IMG/VR virus record: IMGVR_UViG_3300005573_000052 | From: a virus | Length of the DNA: 64,000 bases | Direction: 5' to 3' (one strand) | Shown: piece by piece, positions 2,594-58,000 of the stretch | How positions within the stretch are numbered: position 1 is the first letter of the stretch | Layout of the letters: each line of letters opens with the position of its first letter | Translations under genes and position numbers: made by a program | Notes under the pieces: generated by a model | Database searches by the model: none | What the model was told of the DNA's origin: nothing | What the model saw: the letters and a program-made list of their open reading frames with translations, nothing else

Positions 2594-3069
2594 ATCGCCC
2601 CTCTCGGCCCCTTAAGTGCCCGTCTCACCCGCGCTATGACATTAGGTGCCCAATACGGGTTGAGAGACTCCAGCCCCTTCGCCCGGGCTTGGGTGACCAA
2701 CCCATCCATCCATTCCTTGTCCAGCCGGTCCAGATGATCCTGATTGTCCAGCACAATCTGGTATCGCGCGACCGGGTTGTCCCGGTAATCCGCTGCGAAC
2801 GCAGTCTTGAACGACGTTATCTGCGGTACGCCGGGGCCAAGGAGATACATGGGGTAATCGGTAAAGCGACAGAAGTATTCAAGGTCGTAATTGCGCCCGC
2901 GCACGGACACGCGCTTGATGCCAAGCTGCTTGGCCATGGCGAAGGCCCGGGCGTCGGTGTCCTTGACCATCTGTTTGCACTCGGCCTTGTGGTCACGCCA
3001 GTAGGACCATGAGACAGTGCAAGTTTCACGGATGACGTGGGGGTAGGGAAGAGAGGGCGTGCAGCTCAT
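2590..3069 (-). CDS. hypothetical protein
   Basis: Overlap-coupled ORF in the operon. Confidence 0.7.
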   Translation of the reverse strand: MSCTPSLPYPHVIRETCTVSWSYWRDHKAECKQMVKDTDARAFAMAKQLGIKRVSVRGRNYDLEYFCRFTDYPMYLLGPGVPQITSFKTAFAADYRDNPVARYQIVLDNQDHLDRLDKEWMDGLVTQARAKGLESLNPYWAPNVIARVRRALKGPRGAI

Positions 3070-4391
3070 AACCCCTTAAACTCCCGGTCCTTATAAGCGG
3101 ACCCACGAGATACAATCCCGATGGGCACACCAAGTTGAGCGGAGATATAAGATGGAACCCATTCCGCCGCAACCATCTCACACCGTCTATTTACGTTGTC
3201 CCTTACCTCACCTAACGCCGCCGTCAGCCGTTCGCGCTTGCTGAAATCACCCGGGTCAACACGACAAGAAAGCAAGTCTGCCCCGGGGTAATCCACGATC
3301 ATCGGCCACGTCGAACGCTTGCTCAACTGGTCCAAATGGGTAAGAGCCAACTGGTGAATGGGTTGACCTACTGCCACCGCATATTTGGCCAACACCGTAT
3401 CAAACCAACCCGCGCGGAATCCATGCTGCCATTCGTTGGTTCCGTTATGGGGTTCGGAGACAAGGGACTTGACAACGGGGTCTTCGCCGGGAAAGGGTCC
3501 GGCCCCATGGCGATGCCCGTAAACCCGCAAAACGCCCACGTTCGTTACATCCGTAACCCCAGCCTGAACTAACATCTCGCCCGCGTTACGATGGGTCACG
3601 CGCGACCAAGTGGTGTGAGGATGAAAGCCATAATCCTCGTCCAGCAACACCCCTTGAGACCCTTCCCAGACAGTGTCTTGGGTTGACACCATATCCATCA
3701 TCTCGTCTTCGCCCACAAGACGAACCTGCTTGGTGAAATTGCCATAACGGAAGACCAAGGTGTCGAGAAGCAGGTCATCAGCGAACAGGTTCATGTCGTC
3801 TTGGGCACCCCTCGCGCCCGCATCCTTGACCCGATCCCAAGCAATTCGAGCCTGAGGAAGCAAATGCTTGCGAAGACGATCCAACCTGTAACCGGTAGAA
3901 TGGCCGTTTTCAAGGTCACCGATGGTTAAGATGTCTTGTCCACCTGCCTCTCTCCGCTCCAACGCATATCTGACCGTCTCCCCTATCCCGACTCCACAAG
4001 ACCCATGCCGGTCCAACCCTCGCGCTCGCTCCTTGAGCCGATTAAGGGCGGCATGATATGGGGTCGTGACCAGAGCATCCTTGTGAATGGTGATGATGGG
4101 AAGGTGACCGATCACCTTGGGAACGAGAACCTCTTGCTCGCGCATTAGACGCAGAGGGTCAACCAAAACGTGCTGAGTCAACAGAGTTGCTGCTCCGGCC
4201 AAAGACCCACTTCCCCATTGGGCGAAGGTGTGATGGATACCGGCATCGGTTATGACGTTGTGGGCGCACTGGCACCCACCAGAAAATCGAACGACCAGCT
4301 TGATTCCGTGATGGCGCACCAAAGCGTCCACCGTAGCGCCCTTGGCCTCGTCACCAAAGTGTAGTCCTGTGACAGTGAAAGCCTTGGGCAT
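3066..4391 (-). CDS. purA: adenylosuccinate synthetase-like protein (divergent PurA type, not PurZ)
   Basis: GLHFGDEAKGATVD, RFSGGCQCAHNV, GSCGVGIGET, EGSQGVLLD, HPHTTWS, RHGAGPFP; catalytic Asp retained. Confidence 0.85.
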   Translation of the reverse strand: MPKAFTVTGLHFGDEAKGATVDALVRHHGIKLVVRFSGGCQCAHNVITDAGIHHTFAQWGSGSLAGAATLLTQHVLVDPLRLMREQEVLVPKVIGHLPIITIHKDALVTTPYHAALNRLKERARGLDRHGSCGVGIGETVRYALERREAGGQDILTIGDLENGHSTGYRLDRLRKHLLPQARIAWDRVKDAGARGAQDDMNLFADDLLLDTLVFRYGNFTKQVRLVGEDEMMDMVSTQDTVWEGSQGVLLDEDYGFHPHTTWSRVTHRNAGEMLVQAGVTDVTNVGVLRVYGHRHGAGPFPGEDPVVKSLVSEPHNGTNEWQHGFRAGWFDTVLAKYAVAVGQPIHQLALTHLDQLSKRSTWPMIVDYPGADLLSCRVDPGDFSKRERLTAALGEVRDNVNRRCEMVAAEWVPSYISAQLGVPIGIVSRGSAYKDREFKGL

Positions 4392-9096: not shown

Positions 9097-9417
9097 TCAA
9101 TCCACCCACCGCCTGAACGTGCGCAGAAACGCCTCGGCTCGTTGAGGAGCAGTGGCTGGCGCGAACCTGTGGTCAACCCGGGTTCGCAAAAGGTCATAGT
9201 AAACGGCTCTAAATTCCGGTCCCCACGAAAGAAGAGCCCATTCCGCCTCGTGCATGGCGTTGAGGTCGGTGAGGTAATGCGGCACCTCCATCTCCTCCGA
9301 TTTCATGGTCCCAAGGGTCTTGGCCCCCCAAAGCATGTTCGGGTCAATCAGATCACGGCGGAAATCAGACCACCCGCACAATTTGGCGATAGCAATTCGT
9401 TGGGCTTCGGGGTTCAC
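9097..9417 (-). CDS. tandem paralog 3, phage ABA-sandwich-like protein
   Basis: MNPEAQRIAIA..CGW / VP.Y..DL.AMHEAE / QRAEAFLRT motifs shared with neighbours. Confidence 0.8.
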   Translation of the reverse strand: MNPEAQRIAIAKLCGWSDFRRDLIDPNMLWGAKTLGTMKSEEMEVPHYLTDLNAMHEAEWALLSWGPEFRAVYYDLLRTRVDHRFAPATAPQRAEAFLRTFRRWVD

Positions 9418-9767
9418 AGAGAGTCATCCTTCCATTTACCGATTGTGCGTAGAAATGCTTCCGCACGTTGGGCAGCAGTGGCACGGATGACCGGAAGCCA
9501 CTGCTGGTGACGGAGAGACATCATGCCCTTGTGCAATATGGCGTGCAGCTCGCGGTAATAATCGGCCTGCTGTTGTGGTGTTAGCACGTTCTCCGCCTCG
9601 TGCATGGCGTCAAGACTGGCGGGGTAATTGGGGACCTCAAATTCCTCACAGCCTATGTGGCCAAATGACTTGGTTCCCAATAACAGACTGGGGTTCGTCA
9701 AGTCTCGACGGAAATCAAACCACCCGCACACTTCGGCGATGGCAATGCGCTGGGCCTCGGGGTTCAT
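9414..9767 (-). CDS. tandem paralog 2, phage ABA-sandwich-like protein
   Basis: Same three conserved blocks. Confidence 0.8.
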   Translation of the reverse strand: MNPEAQRIAIAEVCGWFDFRRDLTNPSLLLGTKSFGHIGCEEFEVPNYPASLDAMHEAENVLTPQQQADYYRELHAILHKGMMSLRHQQWLPVIRATAAQRAEAFLRTIGKWKDDSL

Positions 9768-10087
9768 GGGGAGTCATCCTTCCATTTGCCGAGAGTGCGC
9801 AGGAAGGCCTCGGCGCGTTGGGCGGCGGTGGCGTGACAAACTGTCCAATCGGCATCGAAATGATGCTGGTGTTTGTCGGGGTGAAGCAGCCGCACAAACT
9901 CGCGGCGTTGGATCGCATCCAGCACTTGTTCGGCCTCATACATGGCATCGAGACTGGTGGAGTAAGAAGGGATAAAAACAGACGACCAATCATAGCCCCG
10001 CGTCCCGGGTCGCTTCCAATAGCCCTTGGCGTTTCGCTCCCACCCGCATATCTCGGCTATCGCAATTCGTTGTGCCTCTGGTGTCAT
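9764..10087 (-). CDS. tandem paralog 1, phage ABA-sandwich-like protein
   Basis: Same three conserved blocks. Confidence 0.8.
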   Translation of the reverse strand: MTPEAQRIAIAEICGWERNAKGYWKRPGTRGYDWSSVFIPSYSTSLDAMYEAEQVLDAIQRREFVRLLHPDKHQHHFDADWTVCHATAAQRAEAFLRTLGKWKDDSP

Positions 10088-10094
10088 GGCGGTA

Positions 10095-10415
10095 TCAAAT
10101 CTCCCCCTTGAGCTTCCGCCAATACTTGCGGGGCAGAGCGACCAGCACCGTCAGCCACGCGCGCAAACTGGCGGGGCGGCGAAAGTGCGAGAGGCCCGGG
10201 TTGGCAAAGTGCTCGGAAGTGAAGTAGGCCGACAACTGCCAGCCCACGCGAGGGTGCAGGCGATAGACTTGGTCGGTCGTGCGGACAAGGACGTTGGTGC
10301 CGACTGAAGTCCATCCGGTGCCCGGGCCGGTTTCGCCGGGGCCGAGGTTGAAGACCGGGAGGTTCTTGGGGATGTCGGAGGGGGATCGGGGGGTAGAGAA
10401 AGTGCCGGGTTGCAT
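10095..10415 (-). CDS. hypothetical protein
   Basis: Start moved to MQPGTF to remove the overlap with the NAMPT-like gene. Confidence 0.5.
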   Translation of the reverse strand: MQPGTFSTPRSPSDIPKNLPVFNLGPGETGPGTGWTSVGTNVLVRTTDQVYRLHPRVGWQLSAYFTSEHFANPGLSHFRRPASLRAWLTVLVALPRKYWRKLKGEI

Positions 10416-10461
10416 GGGTAAAACTGTGTGAATTAGATGGCGAGATGAAGGAGAATGGAAA

Positions 10462-11970
10462 TTAGAGCGACGCCGCCACCCGGGCACGAATTTCGGCCAA
10501 GGTAGGCTCAATCAAGATGGTCCCGTTGAGGAAAATGGGTTTCAGCTCAGACGCTTCCTCCTGCTCAGGCGTGACACAGTCATTCAAAACCAGTCCGCCC
10601 GGCGTCTTGACCACCTGCAAAAGGCCCTTGGCCGACTTCTTCATCCCATCGTCAGTCACCGGGTCCTTGAATATCTCACGGGCGACCCCGTTCACCACTC
10701 CATACGTGGCTTTGACGGCGAAGCCAAAGGTATCGCGGGTGTTATACTGGTAGGTGTAGCTGCCAATCCCGGCCACCCAGTTGGTCGAGGCGAAGCCCTT
10801 GTCCTTGAGGCGCAGGTGGATGCGCTGCTGACGGTCCAGCGAAATGGAGTCGCCATAGATGGTTCCGATGCACGGGGACAACATCTTGTAGCCCAAGGCG
10901 TTGACGGTGCCACCGAAGATATCCCAGAGGGCCTCGATGACCCCCTTGCGAGTGACAGCCTTGCCCGCCGCGTCCAGCTTCTCCATCTGGGGGTGATAGC
11001 CGTCAAACCCGCAGAGACAGTCAACTGGATCGGTCCAGAACGAGTCGGGACGGATGACAACCTTGCCCTTGCGGGCGGCGATTTTGGTCTTGAGTGCCGG
11101 GAGGATGACGGTCAAAACGCGCTGAAGACTCCATGTGTCGGACACAATGCTAATAATGGCGTCGTCTGGCGTATTGTCAATCAGGCGCTCGAACGTGCCT
11201 ATCTCGTCCTGCTGGCCGCTGAGAGCCATGATGGAGTGTTCGGTAGCACGGACCGATGCCCCAACCAGCTCCTTGCGGGCGTCCGTCCGGTAGTAAAGCT
11301 CCAGAAACCGGATGGCAGGGACTGTGTCGGTCCCGGTGAAGCCAACCGCAAGGTGCGCCGCACCACTGGTGCAAGCTGACTCAAGACTACTCATCCCACG
11401 CATGGAGAAATCATGGCCCTGCCACTGACAGAATCCTGTATCTCCGGTCGTCTCCAATGCGGCCCGCCGGAACTCGCGCAAGAACTCGCGGGCAAGAGTG
11501 GCCGTGGTATACGGCTGCCACAGCGTAGTGCTGAGGATGGTTTCGAGGAAATTGACCAGCCAGTAAGCATGGTCAACCGTATTGGTGATGGTGAGGGACG
11601 GGACACGAATGGGACAAAGCGACCCTTCCGGGAGAGCCTTGATGAGAAGGGGAAGGTAGCCCAAGTCATGCAACGACTTGATATGGGCGAGGGTCACCGC
11701 TCCCGGTCCCAAGGTAGAATCCATGAGGGACTGATAAGGGGCTGACACTTCCTCCCACGGGCGCGAAAAAAACTCGCGGTTCCACTGGTTGACCAGATAC
11801 TCGCGGAGAAAGTAGGTGTGACCGAACACCACTACCTGATTGATGCCTTCAACCCGGCTCTTGCGCGGGGTCAAGTTGGAGTAGATGCGGGTCGTGCCGG
11901 GTTCATACATGGCGTAGTGACCCTGCTTGTAGAAGTCGGTTTGGATGAGGGGAGATATGGAGATGTTCAT
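10462..11970 (-). CDS. nadV: nicotinamide phosphoribosyltransferase-like protein (NadV/NAMPT; possibly NARP1 Namat)
   Basis: TDFYKQGH, HDFSMRGMSS, GTDT, ATEHS, SIVSDTW, VIRPDS, IYGDSI, TRDTFGFAVKAT, KDPVTDDGMKKSAKG. Confidence 0.92.
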   Translation of the reverse strand: MNISISPLIQTDFYKQGHYAMYEPGTTRIYSNLTPRKSRVEGINQVVVFGHTYFLREYLVNQWNREFFSRPWEEVSAPYQSLMDSTLGPGAVTLAHIKSLHDLGYLPLLIKALPEGSLCPIRVPSLTITNTVDHAYWLVNFLETILSTTLWQPYTTATLAREFLREFRRAALETTGDTGFCQWQGHDFSMRGMSSLESACTSGAAHLAVGFTGTDTVPAIRFLELYYRTDARKELVGASVRATEHSIMALSGQQDEIGTFERLIDNTPDDAIISIVSDTWSLQRVLTVILPALKTKIAARKGKVVIRPDSFWTDPVDCLCGFDGYHPQMEKLDAAGKAVTRKGVIEALWDIFGGTVNALGYKMLSPCIGTIYGDSISLDRQQRIHLRLKDKGFASTNWVAGIGSYTYQYNTRDTFGFAVKATYGVVNGVAREIFKDPVTDDGMKKSAKGLLQVVKTPGGLVLNDCVTPEQEEASELKPIFLNGTILIEPTLAEIRARVAASL

Positions 11971-34550: not shown

Positions 34551-35714
34551 TCACTTGCCCCCGACCATATCGCGGAACTTGGCGAAGAGGTAGTCGGCCA
34601 CGTCCTTGCGGGATTCCAGCAGGGCATAAAGCTGGTTCATGCCTTGGACCTTCTCGGGGATGTCGGAGAAGCCTTTGTCGGATAGCTCCTTGAGGAGGAC
34701 CGGGCTGAGCGTGAACCAACTGCCGCCCTTGGTAATCAAGCCCCAGAGAAGGAGCTGGTCGGCGATTTCTCGCTCACGCCAGATGGCAGACCCGTTAGCC
34801 ACCCCATACTTGATGGGGATTTCCACTGTGACATACCGCTTCTCAGCGCTGCTCTTCTGCAACTTGACCTTGAGGATATGCCCGAGCGCAGGATTGGTCA
34901 AGCGGTTGAGTCGCTCATCAGGGTTCTTAAGAATCAGGTCGCCCTCATACCAGTTGAGGAACTCGGCGGTCTCGTTTGCATTGTGGCTGATAGAATTCCC
35001 GCCTGAGCTGTTACCTTGACGCGGCGGGGTCTTATCATACATATTGAGCTTGATTTCTGCCGTAACCTGAGAGATAAAAAATGCGATATGGCCCATCTCG
35101 TTGAGAGCCTGACCCATGCGCTGGAACATCTGAGCGGTCAACTTGGGTGCGCCAGCCACCCGTGCCTCCTCGTCGGTAGCCTTGTTGCGGTCATTCCGCA
35201 GAATCATATTGTTGAGCGAGTCAGTCACAAAAGCATAGCGACACTTGGTGGGGTTGTTCATGACGAGGTCACGCATCATGTCGATCCACGTCTCATAGAC
35301 ACTGTTTTTGAAGATGAGGATGGTGCCGGGAACCCAGTCCTTGGCGTCCGTAACGAGAGGGTGGCGGGCGCGGGCCATGTTCTTGGTGCTGAATCGCCCC
35401 TCTGCCTTGCACCATACCGCCCGACTACCGGGCACCTCGTCAAGGAACGTGTCCACCACATTGAGGACAAACGGGGTCTTACCCAGATTCGGTCCGCCAA
35501 GAATTCGATGTGCTCCTTCAGAAAATCCGCCGATTTCCATGTCAAGATTGAGTGAGCCCGAGGAAACGCGAAACGGAGGAACGGTCTCAGTTAGGTTGTA
35601 ATGGTCCTCGGCAGTCTTCTTGAGGTAAGCCTCCATCTGTGCGGTCGGGTCAAGGACCTTCTTGTCATCGGTCTTCTCGGGGGCGGGCTTAGCGGTGGAT
35701 TTGGGATTGGCCAT
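34551..35714 (-). CDS. recA: RecA/UvsX-like recombinase
   Basis: SSGSLNLD, GGPNLGKT, AEGR, VTDS, FISQV, GG...SH.A, IKYG, GGSWF. Confidence 0.88.
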   Translation of the reverse strand: MANPKSTAKPAPEKTDDKKVLDPTAQMEAYLKKTAEDHYNLTETVPPFRVSSGSLNLDMEIGGFSEGAHRILGGPNLGKTPFVLNVVDTFLDEVPGSRAVWCKAEGRFSTKNMARARHPLVTDAKDWVPGTILIFKNSVYETWIDMMRDLVMNNPTKCRYAFVTDSLNNMILRNDRNKATDEEARVAGAPKLTAQMFQRMGQALNEMGHIAFFISQVTAEIKLNMYDKTPPRQGNSSGGNSISHNANETAEFLNWYEGDLILKNPDERLNRLTNPALGHILKVKLQKSSAEKRYVTVEIPIKYGVANGSAIWREREIADQLLLWGLITKGGSWFTLSPVLLKELSDKGFSDIPEKVQGMNQLYALLESRKDVADYLFAKFRDMVGGK

Positions 35715-35761: not shown

Positions 35762-36190
35762 TCAGGACCTGAGAAACTCCGCCACGGTGCGCGGGCGCAC
35801 GGGGGGCGGTCCAGCATAACGATAGTCACTTGGGCTGGCCGTGTCAACATCTAAAACCGGGGAAGAGTCGGTTGGAACTGCCCCGGGTTCCGGTTCAGGC
35901 GTGACCGGAAAGTCAAAGTAAAAGAGTAACCAGTCGCTGGCTAGCTGCTCGGCCCCCTCAGGCGTCCGAAACCACAGCATGGAATTGAGGCTTTGCGCCC
36001 CGAAGGGCAACTCGTGGTGCTGCCAAAAGTGCAGTTCCGGGTAGGTCTTCCAGAGCCCGTGCCATGTCGATATCTCACGCGCCCAGTCCGGTCCCTTAAA
36101 CCGCTCGAAAACCTCGGGCTTGATGTAGCGGGCAAGGATGGCCGTGATGATCTTGCGCGGGGGAGCTTTGGGGACAGGGGAGTCACTCAC
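35762..36190 (-). CDS. hypothetical protein
   Basis: GTGA overlap at 36187-36190. Confidence 0.6.
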   Translation of the reverse strand: MSDSPVPKAPPRKIITAILARYIKPEVFERFKGPDWAREISTWHGLWKTYPELHFWQHHELPFGAQSLNSMLWFRTPEGAEQLASDWLLFYFDFPVTPEPEPGAVPTDSSPVLDVDTASPSDYRYAGPPPVRPRTVAEFLRS

Positions 36191-36630
36191 GCCTCGTCCT
36201 CCACGTCCACCCATGTCAATTCACCCGGTTCGCCATCCTTGTCTGCCACGATTCGCACGCGTTTGATGGTGGCCCTGTATCCCGCCACCGGGAACCGCTT
36301 ACCCGCCAAAGCCTCCCGGAAACGACGGCGGAGCTGAGTGAGATTCCATCCGCGCCACTCGATTTGGTGCTGCTCGCTGTTGCGCTCAAGTCGGCCATCC
36401 ACCACCGCGTCGATGCAGGCGCTCTCGATAAGCGACGAGGGGTCAGAGTCGCTGTTCTCACGGATAACCGGTTCGAGCATTAGGCACGGACGCCCGAACT
36501 CGTAGCCCTCGTTTTGCCATGTGAGCACGTCGAAGGTCAGTTCATCGCCTTCCCGGATTCCTAACCAATCGCCAGAGCGCAACGTCTCTGCCGGTCCGTC
36601 CTCGGTCGTTTGTTTTTCTGTGCTGCTCAT
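36187..36630 (-). CDS. protein Y, copy 2 (start codon inside attC-B)
   Basis: Highly similar paralog of 36952-37353; first 22 codons lie inside the attC-like site. Confidence 0.8.
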   Translation of the reverse strand: MSSTEKQTTEDGPAETLRSGDWLGIREGDELTFDVLTWQNEGYEFGRPCLMLEPVIRENSDSDPSSLIESACIDAVVDGRLERNSEQHQIEWRGWNLTQLRRRFREALAGKRFPVAGYRATIKRVRIVADKDGEPGELTWVDVEDEA

Positions 36631-36678
36631 AGTGGTTTGGTTTTCGCGGCAGAGCCGTGGCTCATCTCAGTGTTCGGC
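36559..36678 (-). other. attC-like site B (120 bp)
   Basis: R'' GCCGAAC, L'' AGATGAGC, arms CTCTGCCG/CGGCAGAG, L' GCTCTGG, 6-nt spacer, R' GTTAGGA. Confidence 0.8.
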
Positions 36679-36869
36679 AGAGGCGGAATGGCCCCCGCTT
36701 TTTCAAGGGCGTTTATCACCCGTGGCAAAATGCGAAATGCGTCCGCGTCTGCCTTCGGTCCGTTGTAAAACTCGAAATGCAGCGTCAGCAGTAGCTCGCG
36801 TGTATTCTCCGGTAGGTCCGTCCGTTCGGTTGGATAAAAGTTGGACGTGCGATCAAAGACGGAGCCGAA
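36565..36869 (-). mobile_element. integron-type gene cassette X (305 bp)
   Basis: Begins TTCGGC and its own R'' is GCCGAAC, the exact complement expected for a cassette. Confidence 0.78.
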
Positions 36870-36962
36870 CCCACCGCCAGAGCCAATGACCACAGACTGT
36901 CCGTGGTCGGACGATTGTCCGGCTGTCAGAGCCGCCGGTGTGCTGCTGTGGTCATTGCTCAT
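36627..36962 (-). CDS. cassette protein X (start in attC-A, stop in attC-B)
   Basis: ATG within L'' of attC-A; ends LPNTEMSHGSAAKTKPL inside attC-B. Confidence 0.65.
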   Translation of the reverse strand: MSNDHSSTPAALTAGQSSDHGQSVVIGSGGGFGSVFDRTSNFYPTERTDLPENTRELLLTLHFEFYNGPKADADAFRILPRVINALEKAGAIPPLPNTEMSHGSAAKTKPL

Positions 36963-36976
36963 CGGAATTGTTAGGA
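36864..36976 (-). other. attC-like site A (113 bp)
   Basis: R'' TCCTAAC, spacer AATTC, L'' CGATGAGC, perfect 11-bp arms AATGACCACAG/CTGTGGTCATT, L' GCTCTGG, 6-nt spacer, R' GTTCGGC. Confidence 0.85.
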
Positions 36977-37353
36977 AGATCGACCCAAGAAAGGTCCCCG
37001 TGCTTGTCGCGCACGATTTTCACGCGCTTGCGGGTCGCTCGGTAGCCCGCCACCGGAAAGCGTTTGCCAGCCAGCGCCTCGTTGAAGCGGCGGCGCTTCT
37101 GTTCCAGATTCCAGCCGCGCCACTCGATTTGTTGCTGCTCGTTGTTTCGCACGAGTCGGCCATCCACCACGGCGTCGATGCACACGCTTTCGATGAGCGA
37201 TTCCGGGTCGGAGTCGCTGTTCTCGCGGATTACCGGCGCGAGCATCAGGCACGGACGCCCGAACTCGTAGCCCTCATGCTGCCAAGTGAGGACCTTGAAG
37301 GTCAGGATGTCGCCTTCGCGGATGGGGAGGTAGAGGGATGAGTCGTCGGCCAT
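36952..37353 (-). CDS. protein Y, copy 1 (C-terminus reads into attC-A)
   Basis: Paralog of 36187-36630; ends LPNNSDEQ. Confidence 0.8.
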   Translation of the reverse strand: MADDSSLYLPIREGDILTFKVLTWQHEGYEFGRPCLMLAPVIRENSDSDPESLIESVCIDAVVDGRLVRNNEQQQIEWRGWNLEQKRRRFNEALAGKRFPVAGYRATRKRVKIVRDKHGDLSWVDLPNNSDEQ

Positions 37354-57320: not shown

Positions 57321-57613
57321 GACTGGTTCTCCCCTCCTGCTCGCTCGTCCTCATCCTCCGCCGCCTTACGCAGCAGAGCCATCTTGGCGTCGTCGGCTAT
57401 GGCGTAAGCAACCGCCCTTTCCACCGCCTCAACCATCCCGGTGTCATCGGGCAAGACGCAGCCCGCTTCAGACTCATCAAATCCCACGCATCGTCCCTCC
57501 GGTCCGTAAAGCGTAACCCAGCCCGCGCCGCGCTCAATGCAGACCTTGAGGACGTAGTCGAGGGGGAGATGTTCGCAAGCGCGGTCGAGAGCGTCGGAGA
57601 GGGTAATGCTCAT
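57317..57613 (-). CDS. hypothetical protein
   Basis: Overlap-coupled ORF. Confidence 0.65.
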   Translation of the reverse strand: MSITLSDALDRACEHLPLDYVLKVCIERGAGWVTLYGPEGRCVGFDESEAGCVLPDDTGMVEAVERAVAYAIADDAKMALLRKAAEDEDERAGGENQS

Positions 57614-57987
57614 TTAGAATCGTCCCACTTGCCAATGGTGCGCAAAAACGCCTCGGCGCGCTGGGGGGCAGTTACTCCGTGAGCCCACCGATGGATGGGG
57701 ATGGAGTTGGCGTCGTCGGCCGCGCGAACGGCGAAAGGAATGAGGTGCCCGTGATACTCCCATGTCTGAGACATGGTTAAAGTCATTTCCGCCTCATGCA
57801 TCCAGTCCAGACTCTGAGTATAGTTCGGCACGAACCTTCACCGTCCATCCACCGGGCTATTTCCGCGCAGACCCTCCCACGGATAAAGGCATCGTGGATC
57901 AATATCCACGTCTTGGCCCGATTCATAGCGGATGTCGGTCCAACCGCAGGAGGTGGCGATGGCGATATTTTGGGCTTGAGGAGTCAT
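57610..57987 (-). pseudogene. fourth ABA-sandwich-like paralog interrupted by in-frame TGA (57838-57840)
   Basis: ATG 57987 gives MTPQAQNIAIATSCGW...VDGR-TGA-RFVPNYTQSLDWMHEAE...QRAEAFLRTIGKWDDSK in one frame. Confidence 0.75.
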
Positions 57988-58000
57988 GGGGGAGAAAGCT

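Follow-up and report, generated by a model that had tools for sequence, protein, structure and literature searches.

Campbell-type integration of a non-replicating circle by a single crossover (insertion-duplication) is a textbook mechanism. Clusters of attC sites without an intI gene have been described in phages, including lytic ones, and IntI1 recombines such sites (Qi et al. 2023, PMC9892861). The accessible sections of that paper suggest off-target homologous or illegitimate recombination as an entry route, without a shown case, and contain neither the footprint of an entry event nor an antisense design in which genes overlap the attC sites. Cassettes also end up outside integrons through attG insertion and in SALINs; attG insertion depends on IntI, and its joint lies at the core of the attC (Loot et al., bioRxiv 10.1101/2022.09.11.507474).

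The phage locus described here shares with the clusters of PMC9892861, as far as those sections go, the grouping of attC sites without intI, and differs from them in that entry can be traced to a 29-nt interval within a cargo gene and that an intact cassette was found elsewhere. As in Campbell integration, a homologous segment is duplicated, the offset equals the length of the circle and the two copies are reciprocally chimeric; unlike the usual case, the circle would be an integron cassette product, the homology a whole cargo gene (about 79% identical) and the target a phage gene. The cassettes lie outside an integron, as after attG insertion, but the resident sequence is joined mid-gene and the target is duplicated. 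Chromosomal integrons of Opitutales share with the locus the R''-5-L''...L'-6-R' site family, the G|TT crossover, self-complementary cassette ends and, as the model alignment places them, unpaired bases on the arm opposite the bottom-strand AAC. Unlike their cassettes, which are mostly sense, those of phage type are mostly antisense, with start and stop codons inside attC, and neither intI nor attI is present at the locus. A literature search that had most subscription journals outside its range found nothing on antisense or inverted phage cassettes overlapping attC, or on the capture of cassette circles by homology.

The window analysed, 64,000 nucleotides of the IMG/VR record IMGVR_UViG_3300005573_000052, is part of a 181,217-bp contig from a hot-spring metagenome. 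PHROG matches in the window to a DNA polymerase, a DnaB-like helicase, a ribonucleotide reductase and a UvsX-like recombinase indicate that the contig is that of a large phage. The UvsX-like gene (34551–35714, minus strand; phrog_97, E 6e-24) lies 470 bp from the locus and, as context only, is a candidate agent of a homologous crossover. The arrangement of the locus is 100% identical in one JGI contig and one Logan contig, which possibly come from the same source sample, and most of it is present in a second hot-spring run.

For the identification of attC sites, a covariance model was trained solely on 40 Opitutales host sites. It matched exactly the two intervals named in a preliminary description of this DNA, which had proposed such a search: site B at 36559–36678 (42.9 bits; E 7e-9) and site A at 36864–36976 (39.3 bits; E 6e-8), both scored on the plus strand, the E-values being rough. 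The next match in the 64 kb reached 11.9 bits, and the two sites are therefore beyond chance. Geometry alone was not counted as evidence, because a loose scan for attC geometry gave 0–4 hits even in shuffled windows. Site B is composed of R'' TCCTAAC, 5 nt, L'' GCCAGAGC, a variable stem, L' GCTCATC, 5 nt and R' G|TTCGGC, and site A of R'' GCCGAAC, 5 nt, L'' GCCAGAGC, a stem, L' GCTCATC, 6 nt and R' G|TTAGGA. The cores are thus swapped between the sites and the heptamers shared, as had been described. Site B is indeed one nucleotide short in a spacer, which is the one between L' and R' (5 rather than 6 nt) and not, as had been proposed, that between R'' and L''; the 5-nt spacer is conserved in the metagenome contig L003. 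Folding of the bottom strand gave z-scores of -2.8 and -3.4 for site A and -0.9 for site B, and the model alignment places the bulges on the expected arm, opposite the AAC arm. The first extrahelical base is T, not G, and the pairing of the L boxes is imperfect; both traits are also found in the Opitutales host family, to which sites A and B, judged from their sequence, belong. With two attC sites and no intI nearby, the locus is a CALIN. No tyrosine recombinase was found in the 64-kb window with a profile made from the IntI and Xer proteins of hosts, in agreement with the earlier statement that intI is absent, and the intI and attI that adjoin the array of a complete integron were not present within the window.

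The polarity of the sites was taken from host genomes and from other copies of Y. Among 185,579 species genomes, the plus-strand motif matched 48 stretches, mostly titled Opitutales and nearly all from Verrucomicrobiota, and a gene above the integron-integrase cut-off was present in three of five motif-bearing genomes. In four host regions the arrays and intI are divergently oriented, and the sites have the polarity AAC-5-GCCAGAGC...GCTCATC-6-GTT. In the plus polarity the model alignment places the unpaired bottom-strand bases of the two sites on the arm opposite AAC, as in the known anatomy of attC (Nivina et al. 2016, PMC5027507). In both L003 and a contig of run X3 (2023 soil), the site upstream of Y is a near-identical copy of site B among other neighbours, and the site downstream of Y departs from site A right after TCCTAAC. 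Since a B-like site accompanies Y in both, site B belongs to Y and the crossover point is G|TT on the plus strand. The minus strand, previously read as the attC strand, was rejected, as B and not A travels with Y and the host arrays next to intI show the plus polarity; the attC top strand is the plus strand of the window. The earlier R'' and R' labels, bulged base and cassette limits were for this reason mirror-imaged, and cassette X, formerly placed at 36565–36869, occupies 36673–36970. The reasoning from swapped cores survives the correction because it is symmetric. The rule behind it, that R'' complements the 5' end of its own cassette, holds empirically here: the match was 7/7 in 21 of 27 cases, and averaged 6.4 between R'' and its own cassette start, against 5.3 within a site.

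Sequence comparison shows X and Y to be true cassettes, each bounded at G|TT. Cassette X (298 bp; 36673–36970, plus strand) begins at the G|TT of site B and ends with the G in the R' of site A, and its R'' complements its own first bases 7/7. Cassette Y appears split by the crossover into part 1 (36971–37246, plus strand), which holds the 3' part of gene Y in its cassette allele, and part 2 (36482–36672, plus strand), which holds the 29-nt block, the 5' part of gene Y and site B; the two parts amount to 467 bp, and 467 + 298 = 765. Site B is the attC of cassette Y, and on the minus strand its body carries the beginning of Y2 together with the last codons of X; site A, the attC of cassette X, likewise carries the beginning of X and the last codons of Y1.

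Three intact overlapping ORFs occupy the locus, as had been observed, all on the minus strand. ORF Y1 (36952–37353, 133 aa) joins a resident 5' end to the cassette 3' part and stops inside site A. ORF X (36627–36962, 111 aa) has its start codon in site A and its stop codon in site B, the latter overlapping the start of Y2 (ATGA). ORF Y2 (36187–36630, 147 aa) consists of an attC-encoded start, the cassette 5' part and the resident 3' part, and its stop overlaps the GTG of the next phage gene. Genes X and Y therefore run antisense to attC and overlap the sites, away from the usual, though not universal, arrangement in which a sense ORF ends before R''. Homologs of Y comprised 34 close and 118 distant proteins, and those of X were P0036–P0038. 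The cassette cores at 36979–36990 and 36550–36570 (minus strand) fall where plain Y homologs start and stop: plain homologs end in DLP-stop or similar where the cassette frame continues across the core as DLP-N, and their DWLx corresponds to a DWLG encoded by the R'' arm. This coincidence of cores and gene ends may hint at how gene ends turn into cassette ends.

Offset by 765 bp, Y1 and Y2 give a gap-free alignment, are about 79–80% identical and share a 29-nt identical block (37247–37275 in Y1 and 36482–36510 in Y2), all in accordance with the preliminary description. The block alone is weak evidence, because a 29-nt run at 79% identity arises in about 17% of codon permutations; two other homologs match it at 27–28 of 29 positions. 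The evidence is instead the switch seen against two outside copies. The first, in L003, is a single Y between two attC sites, with the closure GTTAGGA/TCCTAAC, whose protein (P0001) has a Y2-type N-terminus and a Y1-type C-terminus. Another ORF of that array looks, on inspection by eye, like a DNA methyltransferase. Before the block, the DNA of L003 agrees with Y2 at 45/48 positions and with Y1 at 36/48; inside the block it agrees with both at 29/29; after the block it agrees with Y1 at 246/270 and with Y2 at 200/270. The two segments of low agreement, 37276–37353 and 36187–36481 (minus strand), would be the 5' and 3' parts of a resident Y allele without attC. The second copy, in run X3, follows the window over 36969–37246 and then jumps back 765 bp to 36482–36676, and at the joint 37246 -> 36482 the 29 letters fit both sides. 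It differs from the window at 17 positions (14 over 36969–37246 and 3 in part 2) and has different neighbours at both cores, its limits being 36969 and 36676.

An intact cassette Y, of the allele expected of a donor, is accordingly present in both L003 and run X3, and Y has three different neighbours in three samples, joined at the cores (G|TT). These alignments, which agree with the earlier view of the flanking Y copies as hybrids of attC-type and resident ends, show Y1 and Y2 to be reciprocal chimeras: each combines the cassette allele with a second, resident one and changes from one to the other within the 29-nt block. When 765 bp are deleted, a single open frame of 134 aa remains, and it is coupled to the phage gene that follows. 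An empty single-Y allele of this phage was not found, nor was a sister phage via the downstream gene; no free circle of 467 or 765 bp was seen in contigs, and the low-depth contigs of runs X1 and X2 held no joint for the empty allele or the circle. There was little synteny with other Y loci. Between the rejoined cassette allele and L003, 25 codon changes are synonymous and 1 is non-synonymous, and all 11 of the listed X3 differences are at third codon positions, which shows that the minus-strand Y is the real gene.

Further cassette forms of both genes were found in other samples. Cassette X occurs in L013 with another attC, both cores being changed compensatorily. Distant Y cassettes in L082 and L079 (73–74% aa identity) end at the same codon; in L082 the start codon position is shared as well, and the cores are changed but self-complementary. 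A site in L014 that adjoins a different gene matches site A at 98% over 100 nt. The bodies of attC sites and of genes have been re-assorted at the R'' side. The different attC of gene X lies at 2244–2344 of L013, and the part of site A that recurs (36864–36963) is found at L014:960–1059. No contig with X and Y adjacent was found outside this phage. The proposed search for the Y and X bodies in host and metagenome sequences gave cassette forms in metagenome contigs (L003, X3 and L013) and neither gene in the host genomes searched.

Phage-type arrays of 3 to 9 sites were present in L003, L013, L014 and two IMG/VR contigs (L015 and L016), the records of which contain no Phage_integrase match. In a crude longest-ORF count, the longest ORF was sense in 69 of 78 host cassettes and antisense in 21 of 30 cassettes of phage type (Fisher p 6e-9), and such tests lend support to a distinct class of phage cassettes whose genes are antisense to attC and overlap it. 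L014 is a contig of 2,054 nt whose ends overlap by 30 nt, made up of about five inverted cassettes with cores that close across the join; it is a candidate free multi-cassette circle, an assembly loop caused by a repeat being also possible. One L014 cassette carries a Mom-family protein, and no replication gene was called in that contig. Opitutales-type attC arrays in IMG/VR were seen at L015:6309–9212, at L016:3979–5139 and 9157–11249, and in L099, L107 and L108.

Most of the Y homologs examined are plain genes without attC, several of them in phage-like contigs, so that one gene family exists in two forms, plain phage gene and cassette. A single clade of the cassette forms of Y was not rejected (p-AU 0.11), and in a protein tree one of the cassette forms grouped with a plain gene. 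In L085, short direct repeats (314–334 and 754–775) flank a plain homolog of Y that has a promoter-like leader of its own, a third packaging of the gene family besides cassette and plain gene. Y was not found in a sample of 401 genomes of the phylum, and among a sample of 401 genomes from the family, short attC arms were the only coherent DNA matches. Given that Y and X are missing from the host genomes searched, the donor was probably a phage-type inverted array, or a circle from one, and not a host chromosomal array.

The locus has a direct duplication, reciprocal chimeras and one crossover interval, as after a Campbell-type event. Most probably, a Y-bearing circle from an inverted phage-type array entered the resident phage Y by one homologous crossover in the 29-nt block. 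Host IntI acting in trans would have made the circle, which would have carried cassette Y with or without X. RecA or the phage UvsX would then have made the crossover inside the block, which is the longest perfect match between alleles about 79% alike; 29 bp is close to the shortest homology that RecA-type recombination can use. If the direction was that of integration, gene X and a second Y would have been added. All frames are open, overlapped and in the direction of the operon because the cassettes are inverted and each start codon lies inside the cassette's own attC. Such single-crossover homologous integration of a Y-bearing circle, with no integrase at that step, had been put forward in the preliminary description and is the most likely account in view of L003 and X3. 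Its further claim, that the locus is only possible via a two-cassette Y-A-X-B circle, was too strong, because the same letters result if a circle of Y alone entered first and an integrase inserted X afterwards.

In that two-step route, a 467-bp Y circle entered by homology to give Y1-B-Y2, and host IntI later inserted X at site B in an attC x attC reaction. Its product is letter-identical (298 + 467 = 765), Y is met with three different neighbours in three samples, and integrase-less phage arrays of up to 9 sites exist; since these are without attI, they presumably grow at attC sites. Against it, the Y1-B-Y2 intermediate was not seen in contigs, L014 suggests that multi-cassette circles occur, and the insertion needed is of a less efficient kind, attC x attC insertion being less efficient than attI x attC. 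Taken as a whole, the two-step route falls somewhat short of an even chance; on the narrower question of X, presence in the same 765-bp circle and later addition by IntI at site B are given about half each. The circle could be dispensed with altogether if a linear Y-X-Y donor had recombined through two crossovers that both fell in the 29-nt block. Duplicated cassettes do occur in integrons, and the block, as the longest identity between the alleles, could favour both crossovers, but this donor was unobserved, two events would be needed and no duplicated cassettes were present in 18 self-compared phage-type loci, all of which makes it unlikely.

The switch pattern alone is symmetric in time, so it would equally arise if Y1 and Y2 were old tandem paralogs whose pop-out created the Y cassette of L003 and X3. 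The perfect GTTAGGA/TCCTAAC closure would then be a coincidence, and the cassette forms in L082 and L079 share their boundaries at 73–74% aa identity, from which the cassette form is probably older than the locus; the reverse direction is accordingly rated improbable, a little more so than the linear donor. Least credible and already refuted for the most part, with a very slight chance between them, are a tandem duplication with chance palindromes, an assembly artefact and insertion at a secondary attG site. Tandem paralogs do occur elsewhere in the phage (at about 9.1–10.1 kb), but the model scores of 39–43 bits stand against a background of 12, two assemblies agree, and the change from cassette to resident sequence is mid-gene and not at G|TT.

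Under integration of a Y-bearing circle, the explanation preferred here, homologous recombination would be able to act on cassette circles. Crossing over of this kind is a textbook mechanism, and the locus is a single event; no second pop-in footprint was present in 18 loci. It is a resolved natural footprint, in which the sequence reveals the cassette allele and where exactly it ends, the interval of the crossover and the hybrid products, and it bears on how cassettes enter integrase-less phages and where cassette genes originate. Entry by homology, a route suggested earlier, would link plain phage genes to a back-to-front cassette family. It is conceivable, though doubtful at present, that phages of Opitutales-like hosts keep a pool of inverted cassettes derived from plain phage genes, shuffled in trans by the host integrase, set free as circles and entering phage genomes by homology to resident non-cassette copies. 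If so, a second crossover elsewhere would release a circle with the resident allele between attC cores, and through pop-in and pop-out the cassette pool and the plain genes of phages would exchange material in both directions, with a bearing on the origin and diversification of cassette genes. The locus also offers defined sites and a candidate host integrase family for bench work.

The cargo most likely consists of small accessory phage proteins under purifying selection. Searches of Pfam and PHROGs gave no family for X or Y, Rfam gave no match, and the ESM Atlas returned unnamed clusters only (best score 0.88). A structure model of Y had a pLDDT of 89; in fold searches its best Z was 3.2 among PDB representatives and no viral structure matched at E <= 0.001, which is not proof of a new fold.

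Several other features of the window were recorded. Three tandem small-protein paralogs with the signature 'AQRIAIAE...QRAEAFLRT' lie at about 9100–10100 (minus strand), spaced by about 320–350 bp, and a fourth lies near 57.6–58.0 kb (57600–58000, minus strand); no attC match was found at these paralogs. A 43-nt intergenic motif that reads TTGACA-spacer-TATxxT on the minus strand recurs across the window (13255, 17580, 18512, 22742, 24404, 29964, 45476, 55391, 57997, 62561 and others) and probably represents sigma-70-type promoters of the phage. On the minus strand, matches were also seen to a tRNA nucleotidyltransferase (513–1892) and a nicotinamide phosphoribosyltransferase (10462–11970). 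The product of 3066–4391 (minus strand) matched the PurZ-like 2-aminooxy adenylosuccinate synthetase (phrog_1211), which could point to the synthesis of a modified base.
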